A stretch of 12,912 nt of DNA from Escherichia coli (GTDB taxonomy: Bacteria > Pseudomonadota > Gammaproteobacteria > Enterobacterales > Enterobacteriaceae), in assembly GCF_003334305.1 (NCBI RefSeq), contig NZ_QOWS01000042.1; one strand, given 5' to 3'. This document shows, piece by piece, positions 2,629 through 12,368 of this stretch (the stretch's first letter is position 1; every line of letters begins with the position of its first letter). The position numbers and the translations under genes are program-made. The notes under the pieces were generated by a model, which had not been told where the DNA came from, did not search any database, and saw nothing but the letters and a program-made list of their open reading frames with translations.

Positions 2629-2974
2629 TCTCTGCTCCTGTTGATACGGAAAGGGACACAGGCACACCGTTATTCCGCCGCCCGGTCAGCTCCACCACCA
2701 TTGAACCGTCAAAATTGCTGTTGATGGTGATGGAATCCAGCGTCAACCGTGGCTCCCAGCGACTCAGCGCCACATACACTGCCGACATGACCTGCAGGCG
2801 TAATGCCGGATTTTGTGGCTGATCTATCAGTGCCGACAGCAGGGAACCATATTCCCGGCGGGCAATACGGCTACCCTGCGGTGTCAGCAGAATGTCCCGC
2901 ACCGACTGGCGCAGATGATCAATATCAGTAATGACTTTGCCGCTGGTATTGTTCATCCCGCTATAAAGCGTCAT
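2615..2974 (-). CDS. W: Baseplate protein, P2 gpW-like (gp25-type)
   Basis: 119 aa starting MTLYSGMNNTSGKVITDIDHLRQSVRDILLTPQGSRIARREYGSLL, similar in length and sequence to P2 gpW as recalled; its ATG (2974..2972) overlaps the V stop (ATGA). Confidence 0.85.
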   Translation of the reverse strand: MTLYSGMNNTSGKVITDIDHLRQSVRDILLTPQGSRIARREYGSLLSALIDQPQNPALRLQVMSAVYVALSRWEPRLTLDSITINSNFDGSMVVELTGRRNNGVPVSLSVSTGAENGSD

Positions 2975-3549
2975 ATCGGGCCTCCGGTTGTATCGCCGCC
3001 TTTCAGGACGCCAGTATGCTGATGCGCATCAACCACGATCCCGTTAGAACTCATCGCTCCGCCGCCCTGGGTAACGCCACCATTGATCACCACTTCGCTG
3101 TTAATGCGCGTGCGGTCAGCCTCCAGTACAAACTCACTGGTTTTCATGGTGATGTTGTCAGCAGCCTCAATGACCATGGATTTGATGCCCCTGACATACC
3201 AGCGCCCGGTGGCGGGTTCGTATTCAAACCAGCCACCGTCAGGATGTTCTGTCACGCAGGCGTCCGCCGACGTCGACGGTGGTGCGAACTGATTCGAATA
3301 GACAGCGGGCAGCGCAAAGGCGGTTTCCAGATTGCCGCCCAGACTCAGCAGCACCACCTGCTCACCTTCCGATGGTCGCCACCATGTACGGGCATTCCCG
3401 GCACGCAGCGTCAGCCAGCTGATCCAGTTGGTTTCAAGCTCGCCCGTTTTCACCCGGCAAAGCCAGTTTTCCCTGTCCACTTCGGTGACTACCCCTGTGC
3501 GGATCAGGTTGGTGATAAGGCGCATGATTTCGGTTAATTGTGCGTTCAT
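2971..3549 (-). CDS. V: Baseplate spike/hub protein, P2 gpV-like
   Basis: 192 aa starting MNAQLTEIMRLITNLIRTGVVTEVD, with RTWWRPSEGEQV and a C-terminal ...HQHTGVLKGGDTTGGPI resembling P2 gpV as recalled; ATG at 3549..3547. Confidence 0.85.
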   Translation of the reverse strand: MNAQLTEIMRLITNLIRTGVVTEVDRENWLCRVKTGELETNWISWLTLRAGNARTWWRPSEGEQVVLLSLGGNLETAFALPAVYSNQFAPPSTSADACVTEHPDGGWFEYEPATGRWYVRGIKSMVIEAADNITMKTSEFVLEADRTRINSEVVINGGVTQGGGAMSSNGIVVDAHQHTGVLKGGDTTGGPI

Positions 3550-3595
3550 AGGGAAAGGTTGCCATCAGGGGAAGAAAGGCGGCAGTGCTGCAACT

Positions 3596-3613
3596 TGTAT
3601 CAGTGCTGATACA
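3596..3613 (-). promoter_or_regulatory. Candidate late-promoter activator site (Ogr/Delta-type TGT-N12-ACA dyad) upstream of V
   Basis: Sequence TGTATCAGTGCTGATACA, part of the perfect palindrome TTGTATCAG-TG-CTGATACAA, lies between the S stop (3618) and the V start (3549). It matches the TGT-N12-ACA consensus of P2/P4 late promoters and sits where the P2 V promoter is expected. Confidence 0.5.
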
Positions 3614-3617
3614 AAGA

Positions 3618-4064
3618 TCACCCCGCCAGCCATTGCAGAATCATGTCGCGGGTCATTGCCTCAACATCATCATTTACACCCAGAAGGCGACGCTCTGCGT
3701 AACGCACCTCCGGTCCCTTACGACTGACGCGATCTCGCAGGCCGTAATGGTGAACGCGGGCAATGCGCTGCACCTTGCCTTCAAACTGCACGCTGGCAGA
3801 GTCGGTGCTGGCGGCAGTTTTCAGGTATTTTGTGGTGCGCAGCTTTGCAAACATCTGACGTTTGATGCGCCCCTTCTTGCTGCGTGCTGTTACCCTGCGC
3901 GGTTCATAACTGCTGCCATCTGGATTGCGCTGCATCCTGATATTCTGCTGCTGTGTCCGGCGCAGTTCCTGCGCCAGCTGGCGCATCATGCGGCTTCTCG
4001 TGGCTGGTTCCAGATTCGCCAGCAAGGCACTCAGCCAGTCGTCCACCTTCTGCAGTTCAGCCAC
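3618..4064 (-). CDS. S: Tail completion protein, P2 gpS-like
   Basis: 148-aa ORF in the P2-equivalent position between R and V. The only start in frame is GTG at 4064..4062, preceded by GGTGA, and it overlaps the 3' end of R by 8 nt. Called mainly on synteny and size. Confidence 0.75.
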   Translation of the reverse strand: MAELQKVDDWLSALLANLEPATRSRMMRQLAQELRRTQQQNIRMQRNPDGSSYEPRRVTARSKKGRIKRQMFAKLRTTKYLKTAASTDSASVQFEGKVQRIARVHHYGLRDRVSRKGPEVRYAERRLLGVNDDVEAMTRDMILQWLAG

Positions 4065-6099: not shown

Positions 6100-6303
6100 T
6101 CAGTCCCATAGCTGGACGGTCTGCACGGTGGTGGTGGTCGGAATGTCCGGCAGCTCCACCTGCAGCCCGTGAGGTAAAAAGGGGCCGTATTCGGCAAGCC
6201 CCGGATTTGCCTTCAGTACCTGCTCCGTGACCCCCTGCGTGCGCCCGTAATGACGCCAGCAAAGCGCGTCCACCGTGTCATACTGATGCGCACGCACTTT
6301 CAT
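6100..6303 (-). CDS. X: Tail protein X (P2 gpX-like, LysM-like)
   Basis: 67 aa, the length recalled for P2 gpX, with ...YGRTQGVTEQVLKANPGLAEYGPFLPHGLQVELPDI... Its ATG (6303..6301) overlaps the L stop (ATGA). Confidence 0.8.
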   Translation of the reverse strand: MKVRAHQYDTVDALCWRHYGRTQGVTEQVLKANPGLAEYGPFLPHGLQVELPDIPTTTTVQTVQLWD

Positions 6304-6767
6304 CAGATAAGCTCCACTGTGCAGTGCGGCGCATCCTGCACCCGGCTGATGGCCCAGCGGGCGTCACGCCACAAATCACCGCTTGCTTCCGCCAGTTCCT
6401 CGCCCCGCTTCACACCGGACGCCGTGGCGTCATAGTCCTGGTATCGTTCGTTGAGCATGGCGCGTGCCCAGCAGTAAACCGCGTTGAAATAGTGCTGAAT
6501 GCGCTCACTTTTGCCGTCCAGCTGTTCCGCCGGAACTTCTGCCAGCGAGGCATACCCCAGCATCTGCTGGCGTCTGCGAAACTCATACAGCTCTGCGTTG
6601 ACCTCCGAAATTGCCGACAGCGCAACCTGCTTTAAACGCGGCTGCGTCACCGTGCCGTCAGTGCGCATCACGCTGCGAAACTCCGACAGGTCCACATCAG
6701 GCCAGAACGGCGTATTCCTGATGATTTCCGCCTGTTCTGGTGCCTGTTCTGGCGCAACAAACTTCAT
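6303..6767 (-). CDS. L: Head completion/stabilisation protein, P2 gpL-like
   Basis: The ATG at 6767..6765 (MKFVAPEQAPEQAEIIRNTPFWPDVDL...) is preceded by AGGAG with an 8-nt spacer and gives 154 aa. The longer ORF-track version starts at a GTG at 6830 inside a GC-rich hairpin and is judged an artefact. Confidence 0.8.
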   Translation of the reverse strand: MKFVAPEQAPEQAEIIRNTPFWPDVDLSEFRSVMRTDGTVTQPRLKQVALSAISEVNAELYEFRRRQQMLGYASLAEVPAEQLDGKSERIQHYFNAVYCWARAMLNERYQDYDATASGVKRGEELAEASGDLWRDARWAISRVQDAPHCTVELI

Positions 6768-6832
6768 GCTGCTTTCTCCTGAAATAGAGGGCGGTGGACG
6801 GGGTTTTGATGTAGCAGTGCCTTTCGCCACCC

Positions 6833-6857
6833 CGTGCCGCCCGTGCGCGGGGGCACG
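6833..6857 (-). other. GC-rich stem-loop in the M-L intergenic region (about 10 bp of stem, no following U-tract)
   Basis: cgtgcc (6833-6838) pairs with ggcacg (6852-6857), and cccg (6840-6843) pairs with cggg (6848-6851), with loop tgcg. It lies in the only sizeable intergenic gap (~95 bp) of the O-S gene string. Confidence 0.4.
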
Positions 6858-6862
6858 TTCTG

Positions 6863-7513
6863 TCAGCGGCTGTCATTGCGCAGTCTGCGCTCCAGCTGCT
6901 GTTTGTCTTTTTTCACGCCACAGCGGGGATCGAGCTGTAACGCATGGTTGAGATGATTAAGGGCGGACGCCGGATTGCTTTCACTCAGGACAGCGCCAAT
7001 CGCTTTATGCAGACGCGCCCGTGACTGGTCCGGCATATCCAGACCGTCTGTCAGCTCCAGCGTCTGCAGCAGCGGATCGGCATCAAAGCCGGTGGCGGCA
7101 AGCATTGCGCTCTGCGCCGCGTCTGCCATTTCCTCTGCCAGCACGGTCTGCACGTTGCGGTTACCCAGCGGCATCACCCAGCCATGACGCAGGGCATGAC
7201 GCCCGATCTCCAGCGCCCCTGCATAATCTCCGGCATCAATGCGCCACAGCATCACGTACATCAGCACGTCATCCTGTTGAGCGCCTCCGGCAGCCAGAAC
7301 GCCCTCCGCCCAGGCGGCATATTTCGGCAGCAGCTCCACCTTGATTTCCGCTTTTTTGACCGTGGACTGAACGCCCTTGAGACGGCGGCGGTCTTCCGCC
7401 AGTTGCAGCAGCATCAGGTCATAGCCCGACGCGTGGCGAACACTGCCGCCCTCGCGGGCGGCCTGTTCAGCCTGAACGCGCAGGCGATGCTGCCGTGCGG
7501 GACTCAGGCTCAT
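6863..7513 (-). CDS. M: Terminase small (endonuclease) subunit, P2 gpM-like
   Basis: 216 aa starting MSLSPARQHRLRVQAEQAARE, with GAQQDDVLMYVMLWRIDAGDYAGALEIGRHAL resembling P2 gpM as recalled. ATG at 7513 is preceded by GGAG and lies 3 nt after the N stop. Confidence 0.85.
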   Translation of the reverse strand: MSLSPARQHRLRVQAEQAAREGGSVRHASGYDLMLLQLAEDRRRLKGVQSTVKKAEIKVELLPKYAAWAEGVLAAGGAQQDDVLMYVMLWRIDAGDYAGALEIGRHALRHGWVMPLGNRNVQTVLAEEMADAAQSAMLAATGFDADPLLQTLELTDGLDMPDQSRARLHKAIGAVLSESNPASALNHLNHALQLDPRCGVKKDKQQLERRLRNDSR

Positions 7514-7516
7514 GAA

Positions 7517-8575
7517 TTACGCTCCGGTTTCTGCTGCGGCGGCGCTGAAGTCACCAATCTGGATGTTTTCCACCAGTGCAGCGCAGCGATAGTCCTCAAC
7601 CACATAGGCTTCGTTAACGGATTCAAAATTTTCAATCCGGTCACGTTTCGGGTTGTCGATAACTGAACGGCGGCGGGTATCTTCCTGCCAGTAGATGGAC
7701 AGGTTATCCAGACGGGTGATCAGCAGCGCATTCGGCGGGAAGAACGGCGCACGCACCGCCTGCAGGCCACCCATGCGTTTCTGACTGATGATCATATCGG
7801 CAGCCAGTTTTTCACTGTTTTCCTGCTCTTTGTTGACCAGCGGGAAATACTTGTCAGACAGCAGTTCACGACCGCAAATCACCACCAGATCGTCATCGTC
7901 CTGGTAGACCACATCGATAAGCTCATTGACGGCATCCATCACTACGGCGTCCAGGTTGGCATATTCGCCACCTTTCCCGACTTTCACCGCGCCCGGTGTG
8001 GTTTCACCGCCCGTGGTGGTGCTGCCCATGACGTGATCCGGTGCATCCTCACGGATTTTCTGCAGCCAGCCTTTGTTCACATCCTGCAGCAGCGGGTTTT
8101 CGCTACGGTTGGAGGTTTTCGCACGCTTCACGCCGTTAAAGCCGATCATGATGCGGTCCAGTGCCTGACGTTTCACGATGGCGTTACGGATACGCACCTG
8201 GAAATCCTGAAACTTCGCCCACAGGTCCAGCTTCGCGTAGGTCAGCACCGTGTCAAAGTTGGTCTGTTCGCATTTGTATTCCACATCGACCATCAGCGTC
8301 GGATCGACAGGTTCTCGCTCTTTCGCGGTGGTATCAGTGGTTCCGGCAATGGTGCTGCCAACACCCAGCCCCAGCAACTGACCAGACTGCTCAGTCACTG
8401 GCGTGACGTTAATCAGCGTCAGGAAAGCGGCGGACTGCTGGATCTGGTCTTCCAGCGTCTGCTGCACGGACGGCTCTACGGTGAACTTGCTGGACAGTTC
8501 TTCAACTGCCACACCGTTCAGACGCGCCAGCTGCTGCAGGTAAGCGTTAAAAGCAAAGCGGGTATTCTTCTTCAT
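7517..8575 (-). CDS. N: Major capsid protein, P2 gpN-like
   Basis: 352 aa in the position between O and M, the same size class as P2 gpN (~357 aa); ATG at 8575..8573. Confidence 0.9.
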   Translation of the reverse strand: MKKNTRFAFNAYLQQLARLNGVAVEELSSKFTVEPSVQQTLEDQIQQSAAFLTLINVTPVTEQSGQLLGLGVGSTIAGTTDTTAKEREPVDPTLMVDVEYKCEQTNFDTVLTYAKLDLWAKFQDFQVRIRNAIVKRQALDRIMIGFNGVKRAKTSNRSENPLLQDVNKGWLQKIREDAPDHVMGSTTTGGETTPGAVKVGKGGEYANLDAVVMDAVNELIDVVYQDDDDLVVICGRELLSDKYFPLVNKEQENSEKLAADMIISQKRMGGLQAVRAPFFPPNALLITRLDNLSIYWQEDTRRRSVIDNPKRDRIENFESVNEAYVVEDYRCAALVENIQIGDFSAAAAETGA

Positions 8576-8591: not shown

Positions 8592-9425
8592 TCAGCAATT
8601 GGTCAGAGTGTCAGCGGGGGCGTTACCGCCTGTTGCACGCTGGCGGTAGTCCTGGCGGCTGTCTTCATGACTCAGCTTATTCACCAGTTCGTTAAAGGCG
8701 GTCTGCTGTGCCTGCAGGGCAGTCTCCAGCTCAGACAGACGTTCTTCCTGCTCAGACAGGGATTTTTCGGTGCGTGCGCTCAGGTTTTGCTGCTCAGTGG
8801 CGACCAGCTCCACGGCCTTATGCACATCAGAGAACCGGGCATCGTCGGACTGCTCTTTTTTGGTAAACAGCGCCGTGACACGGGCAAACAGGGACGGTTT
8901 GTCCTCCTGGATTTCTTCCAGTTCGATCACTGTTTCCTCTGCGGCGGTAAAGAGATTGGCGGGATTCTGCTTGCGGTTTGCCAGCGGGTTATGGGCTGCA
9001 CTGGCGCTGAATGTCAGCATTTCCGTACCCAAACTGGCAGGGTCATCAGTGGCAGCCAGGCCGACCAGGTAGGCTTTGCCCGTATCAGCGAACTTCGGGC
9101 TGACTTCCATAGAGGTGAATAATTTCTGGCCTTTTTTCACCAATTCCACCAGGGACTCCGTTGGCTCAACGTCGGCATACAGCGCCATCTTGCCTGCCAG
9201 CGGGCCTTCCGTGATTTCTTCAGCAAACAGCGCCGTCACCTTGCCGTAACGGTTAAAGGTGCTGTCCGGGAGATAAGACTTGATGTGCTCAAGGTTAATC
9301 AGCGCGGTATACACCGCCGGGTTGTAGCTGGCTGCCATCTGTTCCAGCCATTCACGCTGGATTTCGCGTCCGTCGGTGGTGGCACCTTCCACCCCGATGC
9401 GAAAACGCTTTGCTTTCACTGTCAT
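8592..9425 (-). CDS. O: Capsid scaffolding protein, P2 gpO-like
   Basis: 277 aa starting MTVKAKRFRIGVEGATTDGREIQREWLEQMAASYNP, the same size class as P2 gpO (~284 aa); ATG at 9425..9423 is preceded by GGAG. Confidence 0.9.
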   Translation of the reverse strand: MTVKAKRFRIGVEGATTDGREIQREWLEQMAASYNPAVYTALINLEHIKSYLPDSTFNRYGKVTALFAEEITEGPLAGKMALYADVEPTESLVELVKKGQKLFTSMEVSPKFADTGKAYLVGLAATDDPASLGTEMLTFSASAAHNPLANRKQNPANLFTAAEETVIELEEIQEDKPSLFARVTALFTKKEQSDDARFSDVHKAVELVATEQQNLSARTEKSLSEQEERLSELETALQAQQTAFNELVNKLSHEDSRQDYRQRATGGNAPADTLTNC

Positions 9426-9567: not shown

Positions 9568-11334
9568 ATGAACACCACACTGACACCCGCAGATCTCGAT
9601 CCCCGTCGGCAGGCCATGCTGCTGTACTTTCAGGGATACCGCGTAGCCCGCATTGCTGAAATGCTGGGCGAGAAAGTTGCAACCGTTCACAGCTGGAAGA
9701 AACGCGACAAGTGGGGTGACTATGGGCCGCTGGATCAGATGCAGCTCACCACCGCCGCACGTTACTGCCAGCTCATTATGAAGGAGCACAAAGAAGGGAA
9801 AGATTTCAAAGAAATTGACCTGCTGGCGCGCCAGTCGGAGCGCCACGCGCGGATCGGCAAGTTTAACAATGGCGGCAACGAAGCCGACTTAAACCCTAAC
9901 GTCGCCAACCGCAACAAAGGCCCGCGCCGTCAGCCGGAAAAGAATGTTTTCACCGATGAACAGATAGAGAAACTGGAAGAAATCTTCCATTCCTCCATGT
10001 TCAACTACCAGCGCCACTGGTGGGAAGCCGGAAAAACCAACCGCATCCGCAACCTGCTGAAGTCACGCCAGATCGGCGCGACCTTTTACTTTGCCCGTGA
10101 AGCCCTGATTGACGCCCTGCTTACCGGACGTAACCAGATTTTCCTTTCTGCCAGTAAGGCACAGGCTCACGTCTTTAAGCAGTACATCATCGACTTCGCC
10201 AAAGAAGTCGAGGTGGAGCTGAAAGGCGATCCGATGGTGCTTCCTAACGGGGCCACGCTTTACTTCCTCGGCACCAATGCCCGCACGGCGCAGAGTTACC
10301 ACGGCAACCTGTATCTGGATGAATATTTCTGGATACCGAAATTCCAGGAGTTGCGCAAAGTGGCTTCCGGTATGGCTATTCACAAGAAATGGCGACAAAC
10401 CTATTTTTCCACGCCATCCAGCCTGACCCACAGTGCTTATCCGTTCTGGTCCGGTGCGCTGTTCAACCGTGGACGCAACAAAGCTGACAAGGTGGACATC
10501 GACCTGTCCCACAGCAATCTGGCCCCCGGCCTGCTGTGCGCAGACGGGCAATACCGCCAGATAGTCACCGTGGAAGATGCGGTGCGCGGCGGCTGTAACC
10601 TGTTCGACCTCGACCAGCTGCGCATGGAGTACAGCCCGGACGAATACCAGAACCTGCTGATGTGCGAGTTCGTGGACGATCTCGCGTCCGTGTTCCCGCT
10701 CAGCGAACTGCAGGCGTGCATGGTGGACAGCTGGGAAGTCTGGACCGACTTTCATGCACTGGCCCTGCGCCCGTTTGGCTGGCGCGAAGTGTGGATCGGT
10801 TATGACCCGGCAAAAGGTACGCAGAACGGCGACAGTGCCGGATGCGTGGTGGTGGCTCCGCCAGCCGTGCCGGGTGGTAAGTTCCGCATTCTTGAGCGTC
10901 ACCAGTGGCGCGGGATGGACTTCCGCGCCCAGGCTGACGCCATCAAAAAACTGACCGAACAGTATAACGTGACCTATATCGGTATCGACTCGACCGGCGT
11001 CGGTCACGGGGTTTACGAGAACGTGAAAGCGTTTTTTCCTGCTGTCCGGGAGTTTGTCTATAACCCCAACGTTAAAAACGCCCTGGTACTCAAGGCCTAC
11101 GACATTATCAGCCACCGCCGTCTGGAGTTTGACGCCGGGCACACCGACATTGCGCAGTCATTTATGGCAATCCGTCGCGCTACCACTGCCAGTGGCAACC
11201 GCCCGACCTATGAAGCCAGCCGCAGCGAAGAAGCCAGCCATGCCGATCTGGCCTGGGCAACAATGCACGCACTGTTTAACGAACCGCTGCAGGGCGAGTC
11301 CGCCAATACCAGCAATATTGTGGAGATTTTTTGA
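9568..11334 (+). CDS. P: Terminase large (ATPase) subunit, P2 gpP-like
   Basis: 588 aa (P2 gpP is ~590) starting MNTTLTPADLDPRRQAMLLYFQGYRVARIAEMLGEK. It diverges from O and is followed by Q with a TGATG stop/start overlap. Confidence 0.9.
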   Translation: MNTTLTPADLDPRRQAMLLYFQGYRVARIAEMLGEKVATVHSWKKRDKWGDYGPLDQMQLTTAARYCQLIMKEHKEGKDFKEIDLLARQSERHARIGKFNNGGNEADLNPNVANRNKGPRRQPEKNVFTDEQIEKLEEIFHSSMFNYQRHWWEAGKTNRIRNLLKSRQIGATFYFAREALIDALLTGRNQIFLSASKAQAHVFKQYIIDFAKEVEVELKGDPMVLPNGATLYFLGTNARTAQSYHGNLYLDEYFWIPKFQELRKVASGMAIHKKWRQTYFSTPSSLTHSAYPFWSGALFNRGRNKADKVDIDLSHSNLAPGLLCADGQYRQIVTVEDAVRGGCNLFDLDQLRMEYSPDEYQNLLMCEFVDDLASVFPLSELQACMVDSWEVWTDFHALALRPFGWREVWIGYDPAKGTQNGDSAGCVVVAPPAVPGGKFRILERHQWRGMDFRAQADAIKKLTEQYNVTYIGIDSTGVGHGVYENVKAFFPAVREFVYNPNVKNALVLKAYDIISHRRLEFDAGHTDIAQSFMAIRRATTASGNRPTYEASRSEEASHADLAWATMHALFNEPLQGESANTSNIVEIF

Positions 11335-12368
11335 TGGGAAAGAGTAAGAAGAACCGCGCTGCGTCGACGAAACAGATCCAGCATAAAAGCCAGACTTCAG
11401 CCGAAGCATTCAGCTTCGGTGATCCCGTTCCTGTTCTGGACCGCCGCGAACTGCTGGACTATGTGGAATGCGTACAGATGGATCGTTGGTACGAGCCGCC
11501 TGTGAGTTTCGACGGACTGGCGCGAACCTTCCGCGCCGCCGTGCATCACAGCTCACCGATTGCAGTGAAGTGCAACATTCTGACCAGCACCTACATCCCT
11601 CACCCGCTGCTCAGCCAGCAGGCTTTTTCGCGTTTTGTACAGGACTATCTGGTTTTTGGTAACGCCTACCTGGAGAAACGCACAAACCGCTTCGGTGAAG
11701 TTATCGCCCTTGAGCCTGCACTGGCAAAATACACCCGACGCGGGTTAGACCTTGATACCTACTGGTTTGTGCAATACGGCATGACTACGCAGCCGTATCA
11801 GTTCACGAAAGGCAACATTTTTCATCTGATGGAACCGGACATCAACCAGGAGATCTACGGCCTGCCTGGTTATCTTTCTGCCATTCCGTCAGCTCTGCTC
11901 AACGAGTCCGCCACGCTGTTCCGCCGCAAGTATTACATTAACGGCAGTCATGCAGGCTTCATCATGTACATGACCGATGCAGCGCAGAACCAGGAGGATG
12001 TGAACAACCTCCGCAACGCGATGAAAAGCGCCAAAGGTCCTGGTAACTTCCGTAACCTGTTTATGTACTCGCCTAACGGTAAAAAGGACGGGCTTCAGAT
12101 TATCCCGTTGTCAGAAGTGGCGGCGAAGGATGAGTTCCTGAATATCAAGAACGTGAGCCGGGACGACATGATGGCGGCGCATCGTGTGCCGCCACAAATG
12201 ATGGGGATAATGCCTAATAATGTCGGGGGGTTTGGGGATGTGGAGAAGGCCAGTCGCGTATTTGTACGTAATGAATTAACGCCCTTGCAAAAAAGGCTAC
12301 AAGAGCTGAACGACTGGCTGGGCGAAGAAGTGATTAAATTTACGCCCTATATTCTTTCAGAAGAATAA
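11334..12368 (+). CDS. Q: Portal protein, P2 gpQ-like
   Basis: ATG at 11334 (the ORF-track TTG at 11331 is one codon upstream) gives 344 aa, the length recalled for P2 gpQ, starting MGKSKKNRAASTKQ. Its start overlaps the P stop. Confidence 0.9.
   Translation: MGKSKKNRAASTKQIQHKSQTSAEAFSFGDPVPVLDRRELLDYVECVQMDRWYEPPVSFDGLARTFRAAVHHSSPIAVKCNILTSTYIPHPLLSQQAFSRFVQDYLVFGNAYLEKRTNRFGEVIALEPALAKYTRRGLDLDTYWFVQYGMTTQPYQFTKGNIFHLMEPDINQEIYGLPGYLSAIPSALLNESATLFRRKYYINGSHAGFIMYMTDAAQNQEDVNNLRNAMKSAKGPGNFRNLFMYSPNGKKDGLQIIPLSEVAAKDEFLNIKNVSRDDMMAAHRVPPQMMGIMPNNVGGFGDVEKASRVFVRNELTPLQKRLQELNDWLGEEVIKFTPYILSEE

Follow-up and report, generated by a model that had tools for sequence, protein, structure and literature searches.

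Genomic setting of the M-L gap

The window, by which we mean the whole 12,912-nt stretch of Escherichia coli DNA analyzed here, carries a Fels-2-like prophage of the P2 family (Peduoviridae) with its late genes on the minus strand (Table 1). A first-pass annotation had placed approximately 95 bp between the terminase small subunit gene M and the head-completion gene L, in agreement with the spacing given by the open reading frame coordinates, and had singled out this gap as the only large one in the O-S gene string. Inspection of the remaining junctions, which overlap or span at most 16 nt, confirmed this description. The second-largest non-coding gap of the window (3550-3617, minus strand) lies between an S-like ORF (3618-4064) and a V-like ORF (2971-3549), and by analogy with P2 it is presumably the PV late promoter region.

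PGAP annotation of E. coli genomes marks the flanking genes and places nothing at the element described below. Using at least 90% identity over positions 6740-6900 as the threshold, we found the window variant in 978 of 5426 complete E. coli genomes, mostly at one copy per genome and at three copies at most, with eight copies residing on plasmids.

Table 1. Coordinates of late genes, translation signals and predicted RNA features in the window
Feature	Position	Strand	Remark
Q	11331-12368	+	
P	9568-11334	+	
O	8592-9425	-	minus strand late genes
N	7517-8575	-	minus strand late genes
M (terminase small subunit)	6863-7513	-	PHROG 74, E = 2e-88
M stop codon	6863-6865	-	UGA; element starts directly 3' of stop; ORF 6863-7513
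L (head-tail adaptor Ad1; head-completion gene)	6303-6767	-	E = 1.7e-68
Shine-Dalgarno of L	6776-6780	-	AGGAG
Start codon of L	6765-6767	-	AUG
X	6100-6303	-	minus strand late genes; followed by lysis and tail-completion genes
M-L gap	6768-6862	-	95 nt
Linker	6856-6862	-	CAGAACG, single-stranded
Hairpin P1	about 6845-6857	-	3-4 bp stem; C-rich loop CCCC at 6849-6852
Hairpin P2	6789-6842	-	54 nt
P2a, base helix	G6842-G6837 with C6794-C6789	-	6 bp
Unpaired C	6836	-	short side of 1x3 internal loop, P2 5' strand
P2b helix	A6835, C6834, G6833 with U6798, G6799, C6800	-	3 bp
P2c helix	G6832-G6830 with C6801-C6803	-	
P2 variable apical part	6805-6828	-	
Unpaired CCA	6795-6797	-	long side of 1x3 internal loop, P2 3' strand
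Tail	6781-6788	-	UCUAUUUC; pyrimidine/AU-rich, single-stranded; no terminator U-tract
Hairpin of the first-pass annotation	6833-6857	-	arms 6833-6841 and 6849-6857

Predicted architecture of the gpM-downstream element

Comparison of this gap across P2-like phages shows that it encodes a conserved, structured element of the late polycistronic mRNA, which we named the gpM-downstream element; we infer that it is cis-acting and read by some factor. The predicted fold consists of a small hairpin with a C-rich loop (P1), directly followed by a long hairpin (P2), and separate folds of the window and 12 relatives agree on this architecture. The linker that precedes P1 has the consensus CCGA(A/G)YG in gamma- and betaproteobacterial phages, a consensus that was not conserved in the alignments of the alphaproteobacterial group. 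In its consensus register P1 pairs G6856 with C6845, U6855 with G6846, G6854 with C6847 and C6853 with G6848, while the minimum free energy (MFE) fold of the window shows a shifted 5-bp register joining C6857-C6853 to G6846-G6842. All three pairs of P1 carry double changes among homologues (GC/CG; CG/UG/UA/GC; GC/UA/CG).

P1 and P2 are 0-4 nt apart, and P2 itself measures 44-65 nt (lengths of 44, 45, 54-61, 63 and 65 nt), with P2a, the 3-bp P2b and P2c with the upper stem (5-10 bp) adding up to approximately 16-20 bp with internal loops. P2a and P2b enclose an asymmetric internal loop that has a single C opposite CCA. The C is present in every group with the element, and the CCA is the most conserved unpaired feature, being kept in enterobacterial, Burkholderia, Ralstonia, Pseudomonas, Mannheimia and alphaproteobacterial phages though both flanking helices change; the single exception seen was UCA in locus L004. 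Of the two pairs that flank the C/CCA loop, 42/138 is an invariant GC and 44/134 is AU, UA or GC. The single-stranded tail after P2 has the consensus A-C-C-U-A-U-U-C in enterobacterial and Pseudomonas phages, and was not conserved in beta- or alphaproteobacterial phages.

Conservation and covariation

Gaps of 92-99 nt follow M in the window, Fels-2, Yersinia phage MLG42, three Klebsiella phages belonging to different genera, P2 (5901-5999) and 186 (6648-6739). Two blocks, GGGCGGCACG and CGUCCACCGCCC (the second also given as CGTCCACCGCCC), are identical in all eight aligned gaps; they are only 10-12 nt long, and the sequence between them differs in complementary fashion. The flanking genes are far more diverged: L of the window has 41% identity to its counterparts in P2 and 186, and a blastn search with 601 nt of the window gave no connection to either phage. 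When folded separately, each of the eight gaps gave the same architecture, with z-scores down to -3.7 in P2 and -4.2 in 186.

A pattern built from the two identical blocks matched at least 120 contigs in IMG/VR and gave 79 distinct cores, 44-63 nt in length; apart from two chance matches, all are found a short way upstream of an L-like start. Two matches 306 nt apart on a viral contig without relation to these phages (L064 1866-2236), where the coding sequence is repetitive and G+C-rich, were taken as chance and excluded. A MAFFT alignment of 90 distinct sequences analyzed with RNAalifold recovered both P1 and P2, and the helices outside the search pattern carry GC, CG, AU, UA and GU variants in dozens of sequences.

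We then built a covariance model from the 90-sequence alignment and used it to align 57 diverse hits over 19 pairs. The P1/P2 fold left 95% of cells paired, with a covariation score of 0.528 and double changes at 16 of the 19 pairs. Shuffled controls were paired in 72% of cells with a covariation of 0.134 and a mean of 11.5 double-change pairs, and none of 500 reached the observed covariation; controls in which the structure was slid gave 39-55% paired cells, covariation of 0.03-0.06 and 4-8 double-change pairs. Compensatory changes across diverged sequences, the general mark of a conserved structured RNA, are thus present. An all-against-all scan of alignment columns returned only the known helices and one pair extending the apical stem, and we accordingly rejected a pseudoknot or long-range partner for the conserved single-stranded residues. 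Read on the transcribed-sense strand, G.U pairs outnumber A.C mismatches (39 versus 15 cells), so that the folding molecule is the transcript or else DNA of the transcript's sense.

Relation to the hairpin first proposed in the gap

The first-pass annotation had drawn a single stem-loop at 6833-6857. The inverted repeat behind it exists, with 8 of 9 arm positions complementary, but it is neither the predicted RNA fold nor a pairing that evolution has kept. Folding the gap RNA, a check that had been proposed for the stem-loop, gave as the MFE structure a 5-bp hairpin followed by the long hairpin. This fold has a free energy of -34.5 kcal/mol (z = -1.7), and 11 of 200 shuffles fold equally well; the window fold alone is therefore not beyond chance, and its significance rests only on the comparative data. 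The second check, conservation in other P2-like phages, was strongly positive for the larger P1/P2 fold and lent no support to the 6833-6857 pairing. On the 57-sequence alignment the latter was paired in 78% of cells compared to 77% in shuffles, with a covariation score of 0.108, double changes in 3 of 8 pairs and central pairs broken in 38 and 25 of the 57 sequences. We therefore rejected the 6833-6857 hairpin as a functional unit, its pairing being at shuffle level. It joins the 5' half and loop of P1 to the 5' strand of P2, an alternative pairing in competition with both hairpins and confined to the Fels-2-like lineage; the true feature spans about 6781-6862. The broader suggestion that the gap holds a functional feature at the RNA level is borne out by conservation across P2-like phages.

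Phylogenetic breadth

Loci for assessing breadth were fetched through L-protein homology alone. In addition to the Klebsiella and Yersinia phages named above, the element directly follows M in phages of Burkholderia, Ralstonia, Pseudomonas, Mannheimia and Zymomonas, with base helices that differ between lineages. P2a reads AGGCGG/CCGCCU in Burkholderia phage Mana and Ralstonia phage RSY1. Pseudomonas phage Dobby and all 48 of 48 phiCTX-like IMG/VR loci carry the element, with P2a as CGGCGG/CCGCCG or CGCCGG/CCGGCG and P2b as UCG/CGA. Mannheimia phage 1127AP1 has AAGGGG/CCCCUU in P2a and GGA/UCC in P2b, the Zymomonas element and several alphaproteobacterial-type loci have CGGGGG/CCCCCG with AGA/UCU or GGA/UCC, and further helix variants include GGGCGG/CCGCCC for P2a and ACG/CGU for P2b. 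The stems that look invariant among enterobacterial phages thus do covary at greater distance, and what is fixed across the wider family is the unpaired C, the unpaired CCA and the C-rich loop of P1. Collectively, the alignments show that compensatory changes keep the fold across P2-family phages whose hosts are alpha-, beta- and gammaproteobacteria.

In Vibrio phage L9-1 the gap is comparable in size but folds differently. A first IMG/VR protein-profile scan returned near-identical relatives only. Escherichia phage ESSI2_ev129 has a degenerate version at best. In the same phage an annotated 78-aa ORF lies between the small terminase and adaptor genes (L134 640-876); it is made up of approximately four tandem copies of a unit of about 48 nt that encode a histidine-rich repeat (…HTHTVGAHSHSLGGA…).

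Position relative to genes and translation

The placement of the element between the two genes is nearly constant. P2a is preceded at a distance of 21-25 nt by the first base of the M stop codon in 130 of 143 distinct instances, and 16-24 nt separate the end of P2 from the start codon that follows in 129 of 143; these instances were picked by a loop-requiring pattern and include a few chance matches. With ordinary ribosome footprints, a ribosome terminating on M would open P1 and not P2, and one initiating at the next cistron would just clear P2. Lying between the two footprints, the long hairpin should never be melted by translation. Among alphaproteobacterial-type loci, a hydrophobic ORF of 73 aa is inserted between the element and L while the element stays at the M stop; it therefore belongs to the end of M and not to the L ribosome-binding site. 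This ORF (L220 423-644, also seen in L219, L221, L223-L225, L228, L231 and L232) encodes a membrane-like product, and its stop overlaps the L start.

Several simpler accounts of the gap were discarded. The genomes of P2, Dobby and the window each contain one match to the element, with next best scores of at most 14 bits, and this single copy per genome led us to reject a repetitive extragenic or mobile element. We also considered a signal for read-through of the M stop codon. The M frame of the window stays open for 32 sense codons past the UGA and ends at a UGA overlapping the L start (AUGA), and in Fels-2 it runs straight into the L frame. Across the family, the next in-frame stop falls before the element in 13 members, inside it in 34, just after it in 38 and far beyond it in 56; as the extension is not kept and tandem stops occur in 13 members, read-through was rejected. 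A small protein-coding gene was rejected as well, given that P2 lengths vary by steps that are not multiples of three.

The G+C-rich element is free of stops in some frames, and the L frame of the window is open back to a GTG at 6830 (6768-6830, minus strand). Public records of ST13-OXA48phi12.1 and RSY1 start L inside the element, the Mana record has an overlapping "hypothetical protein", and the Zymomonas pZM41 record runs M through the element. We regard these calls of L and M gene ends (L005 402-938; L129 932-1459; L128 856-1389; L133 150-941) as probable annotation errors caused by the element.

Candidate functions

The reading that we favor, with a probability of about 0.4, is that the gpM-downstream element is a putative processing or stability determinant that would uncouple O-N-M from L, X and the lysis segment. 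The invariant C/CCA loop would give the helix a defined shape read by a conserved factor, for which the candidates are universal components of the host, a ribonuclease among them, and proteins inherited together with the head module. Endonucleolytic cleavage at or beside the element could then leave the stable hairpin as a 3' barrier that shields the O-N-M mRNA from 3'-5' exonucleases. By this route the head segment (O-N-M) would be uncoupled post-transcriptionally from L, X, the lysis and the tail-completion genes, and the relative expression of both segments would be set by cleavage together with protection. RNase E-type cleavage is expected at an AU-containing single strand beside a protective hairpin, and the conserved AU-containing tail after the stem in enterobacterial and Pseudomonas phages is as expected of such a site. 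Several points sit less well with a processing or stability role, however: beta- and alphaproteobacterial phages lack the AU-rich tail, neither an invariant C/CCA nor a C-rich P1 loop would be needed for an RNase III site or a simple barrier to exonucleases, attenuation would be more logical after the capsid gene N than after M, and the element could just as well be an operator for a protein or a signal for transcription elongation. The roles named in the first-pass annotation, as an RNA processing or stability element or a site bound by a protein, are nonetheless still the foremost candidates. We also hold, tentatively, that the C/CCA helix could be the docking site of a new class of phage RNA that sets late-gene stoichiometry or aids head assembly or packaging in essentially all P2-family phages. 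Its docking partner may be a protein of the head module, such as the small terminase, or else RNA polymerase or an enzyme common to all hosts, RNase P for example.

Alternatively, the element may be a protein operator, on which a head-module protein (such as gpM leaving the ribosome, or gpL) or a host RNA-binding protein would bind the C/CCA helix and control translation of the next cistron or of M. Invariance of the C, the CCA and the C-rich P1 loop while the helices covary is typical of protein-recognition sites, C-loops (3x1, with two cytosines and an adenine) have been described as helix-twisting protein-binding sites, the element travels with the head module irrespective of which replication module is present, and the distance of 16-24 nt from P2 to the next start codon brings it to the edge of a 30S footprint. 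We consider an operator less likely, as the element overlaps neither the Shine-Dalgarno sequence nor the start codon, as a translational operator should, and alphaproteobacterial-type loci have another gene as the cistron after the element. The element could instead control transcription elongation in the nascent RNA, through put-like antitermination that makes RNA polymerase resistant to terminators further on, a pause signal or a Rho-access structure in the untranslated gap. Its unpaired residues are C-rich; the two adjacent stem-loops 0-4 nt apart have the arrangement of the HK022 put RNAs, which are likewise two adjacent stem-loops; the P2 record lists a putative attenuator and terminators downstream in the O operon; and P2 late operons are under Rho-dependent polarity, which P4 Psu suppresses. 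Elongation control is unlikely all the same, with the element (P2 5901-5999) lying approximately 2.8 kb from the PO start at 3127 and hence far from promoter-proximal, with no likeness to any Rfam model, and with a G+C-rich, almost fully paired gap that would make a poor Rho-loading site. It is very unlikely that the element is excised as a stable small RNA acting in trans, as a decoy, a regulator or a packaging cofactor like phi29 pRNA. It is compact, very stable and of conserved size (P2 of 44-65 nt), it is encoded beside the terminase genes, and a CCA bulge is functionally critical in phi29 pRNA, which we treat as a lead only; but no promoter of its own was called, no 3' end signal is conserved, neither pRNA-like interlocking loops nor further covarying pairs were found, and to our knowledge P2 packaging has been reconstituted in the absence of any reported RNA requirement.

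The strand that folds also has the sense of the rightward genes, which we take to be probably that of the strand displaced in P2 rolling-circle replication, and in the P2 record the nick site falls within the rightward gene A, the nicked strand being left unnamed. A DNA-level role, in which a single-stranded DNA hairpin or cruciform would be a lagging-strand priming site or a recombination linker between modules, would also fit the observation that the M-L junction separates genes with different phylogenies (PMC13100340). We judge such a role highly improbable: an unvarying register with the M stop and the next start codon, together with tolerated G.U pairs, points to mRNA, the identical blocks are only 10-12 nt long, and phiCTX-like Dobby keeps the element with a primase-helicase in place of a gpA-type nickase. 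As Dobby has no gpA homologue annotated, a rolling-circle single-strand origin was rejected outright. Least credible of all is that M ends in a leaky intrinsic terminator or attenuator. The stem is G+C-rich (P2a GGGCGG/CCGCCC), and in some members 3-6 U come after it, as in P2 (GACUUUUC), L050 (CCUAUUUUUU) and ESSI2 (CCGCCUUUUU). The record of Mannheimia phage vB_MhM_1127AP1 even annotates a promoter and a "rho-independent terminator (MFold)" on the element (L131 846-887), at a site whose fold is the P1/P2 architecture with the C and CCA bulges. Even so, 35 of 57 homologues have no U-run longer than 2 within the 10 nt that follow the stem, with 12 of the 57 at 0-1; 186 and the phages of Burkholderia, Ralstonia, Pseudomonas and the alphaproteobacterial group lack such a run, and genetic polarity data, as annotated in the P2 record, put L-S in the O-N-M transcription unit. 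The terminator scan made no call at 6781-6862 and called no site in the window. The early view that the hairpin does not look like an intrinsic terminator therefore stands, and a conserved intrinsic terminator was rejected because the U-tract is not kept in homologues.

Significance

P2 and 186 serve as textbook examples of temperate phages, their genomes have been heavily curated, and prophages of the P2 type are very common. A fold at a fixed place in the head-gene operon across three proteobacterial classes implies an undescribed regulatory or mechanistic step in late gene expression. The element provides a clean covariance-model marker for Peduoviridae head modules and probably accounts for the recurrent mis-annotation of L and M gene ends, and its CCA bulge is a compact target for mutagenesis. 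Were the partner a phage protein or RNA polymerase, the element would represent a new class of regulatory RNA; were it only a decay barrier, it would still be a well-defined case of segmental mRNA stabilization in a phage operon.

Comparison with known RNA families and systems

Searches of the window, P2 and Dobby against Rfam 15 with lax filters gave best scores of 6-18 bits, against thresholds of 35-100, all to generic hairpins. The curated records of P2 and 186 list promoters, activator sites, terminators and an attenuator, with nothing in the M-L gap, and a 2026 survey of P2-like viruses leaves intergenic or RNA features unmentioned. In the papers searched, the literal conserved sequences have no mention in a phage context, though an early remark on a stem-loop in the original P2, 186 or phiCTX papers is possible. 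The P1/P2 junction of P2, CCCCGCGCCAG (P2 5909-5924; L006 2910-2925), is identical to 11 nt of the E. coli type I-E CRISPR repeat. We judged this likeness to be probably chance, as the 3' half cannot form the repeat hairpin and no similarity is seen in other lineages.

We conclude that the gpM-downstream element is a new family among conserved cis-acting phage mRNA structures, widespread and with good covariation support; it resembles the systems below without belonging to any of them. Its nearest counterparts in placement are motifs of the Mu-gpT-DE type (Weinberg-type, Rfam), which comparative genomics has uncovered; Mu-gpT-DE is a covariation-supported "downstream element" directly 3' of a phage head-morphogenesis gene, and neither it nor the element described here has its own promoter. 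The two differ in sequence and in fold, and the element described here is tied to the Peduoviridae small-terminase gene. The HK022 put RNAs also present two adjacent stem-loops in a nascent phage transcript, but put sites lie just downstream of promoters, whereas this element lies mid-operon. With phi29 pRNA it shares a CCA bulge in a helix and a tie to DNA-packaging genes; pRNA, in contrast, has its own promoter, a length of 120-174 nt and interlocking loops, none of which were seen for this element.

In the sequence of its internal loop, the element resembles the C-loop of 23S rRNA helices and the thrS operator, with 3 nt opposite 1 between Watson-Crick helices and two C and one A in the long strand. 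Two methods papers describe the C-loop as a 3x1 asymmetric loop of two cytosines and an adenine that raises helical twist and binds protein. The order of the long strand differs, reading C-C-A here compared to C-A-C in H. marismortui C-50. As a long irregular intercistronic hairpin with an internal loop, the element also resembles T7 RNase III sites, the malE-malF REP stabilizer and the puf hairpin, and differences in segmental mRNA stability are the expected effect common to both. The unpaired parts of the T7 RNase III, REP and puf hairpins vary widely, whereas in the gpM-downstream element the C/CCA and the C-rich loop are fixed across three proteobacterial classes.
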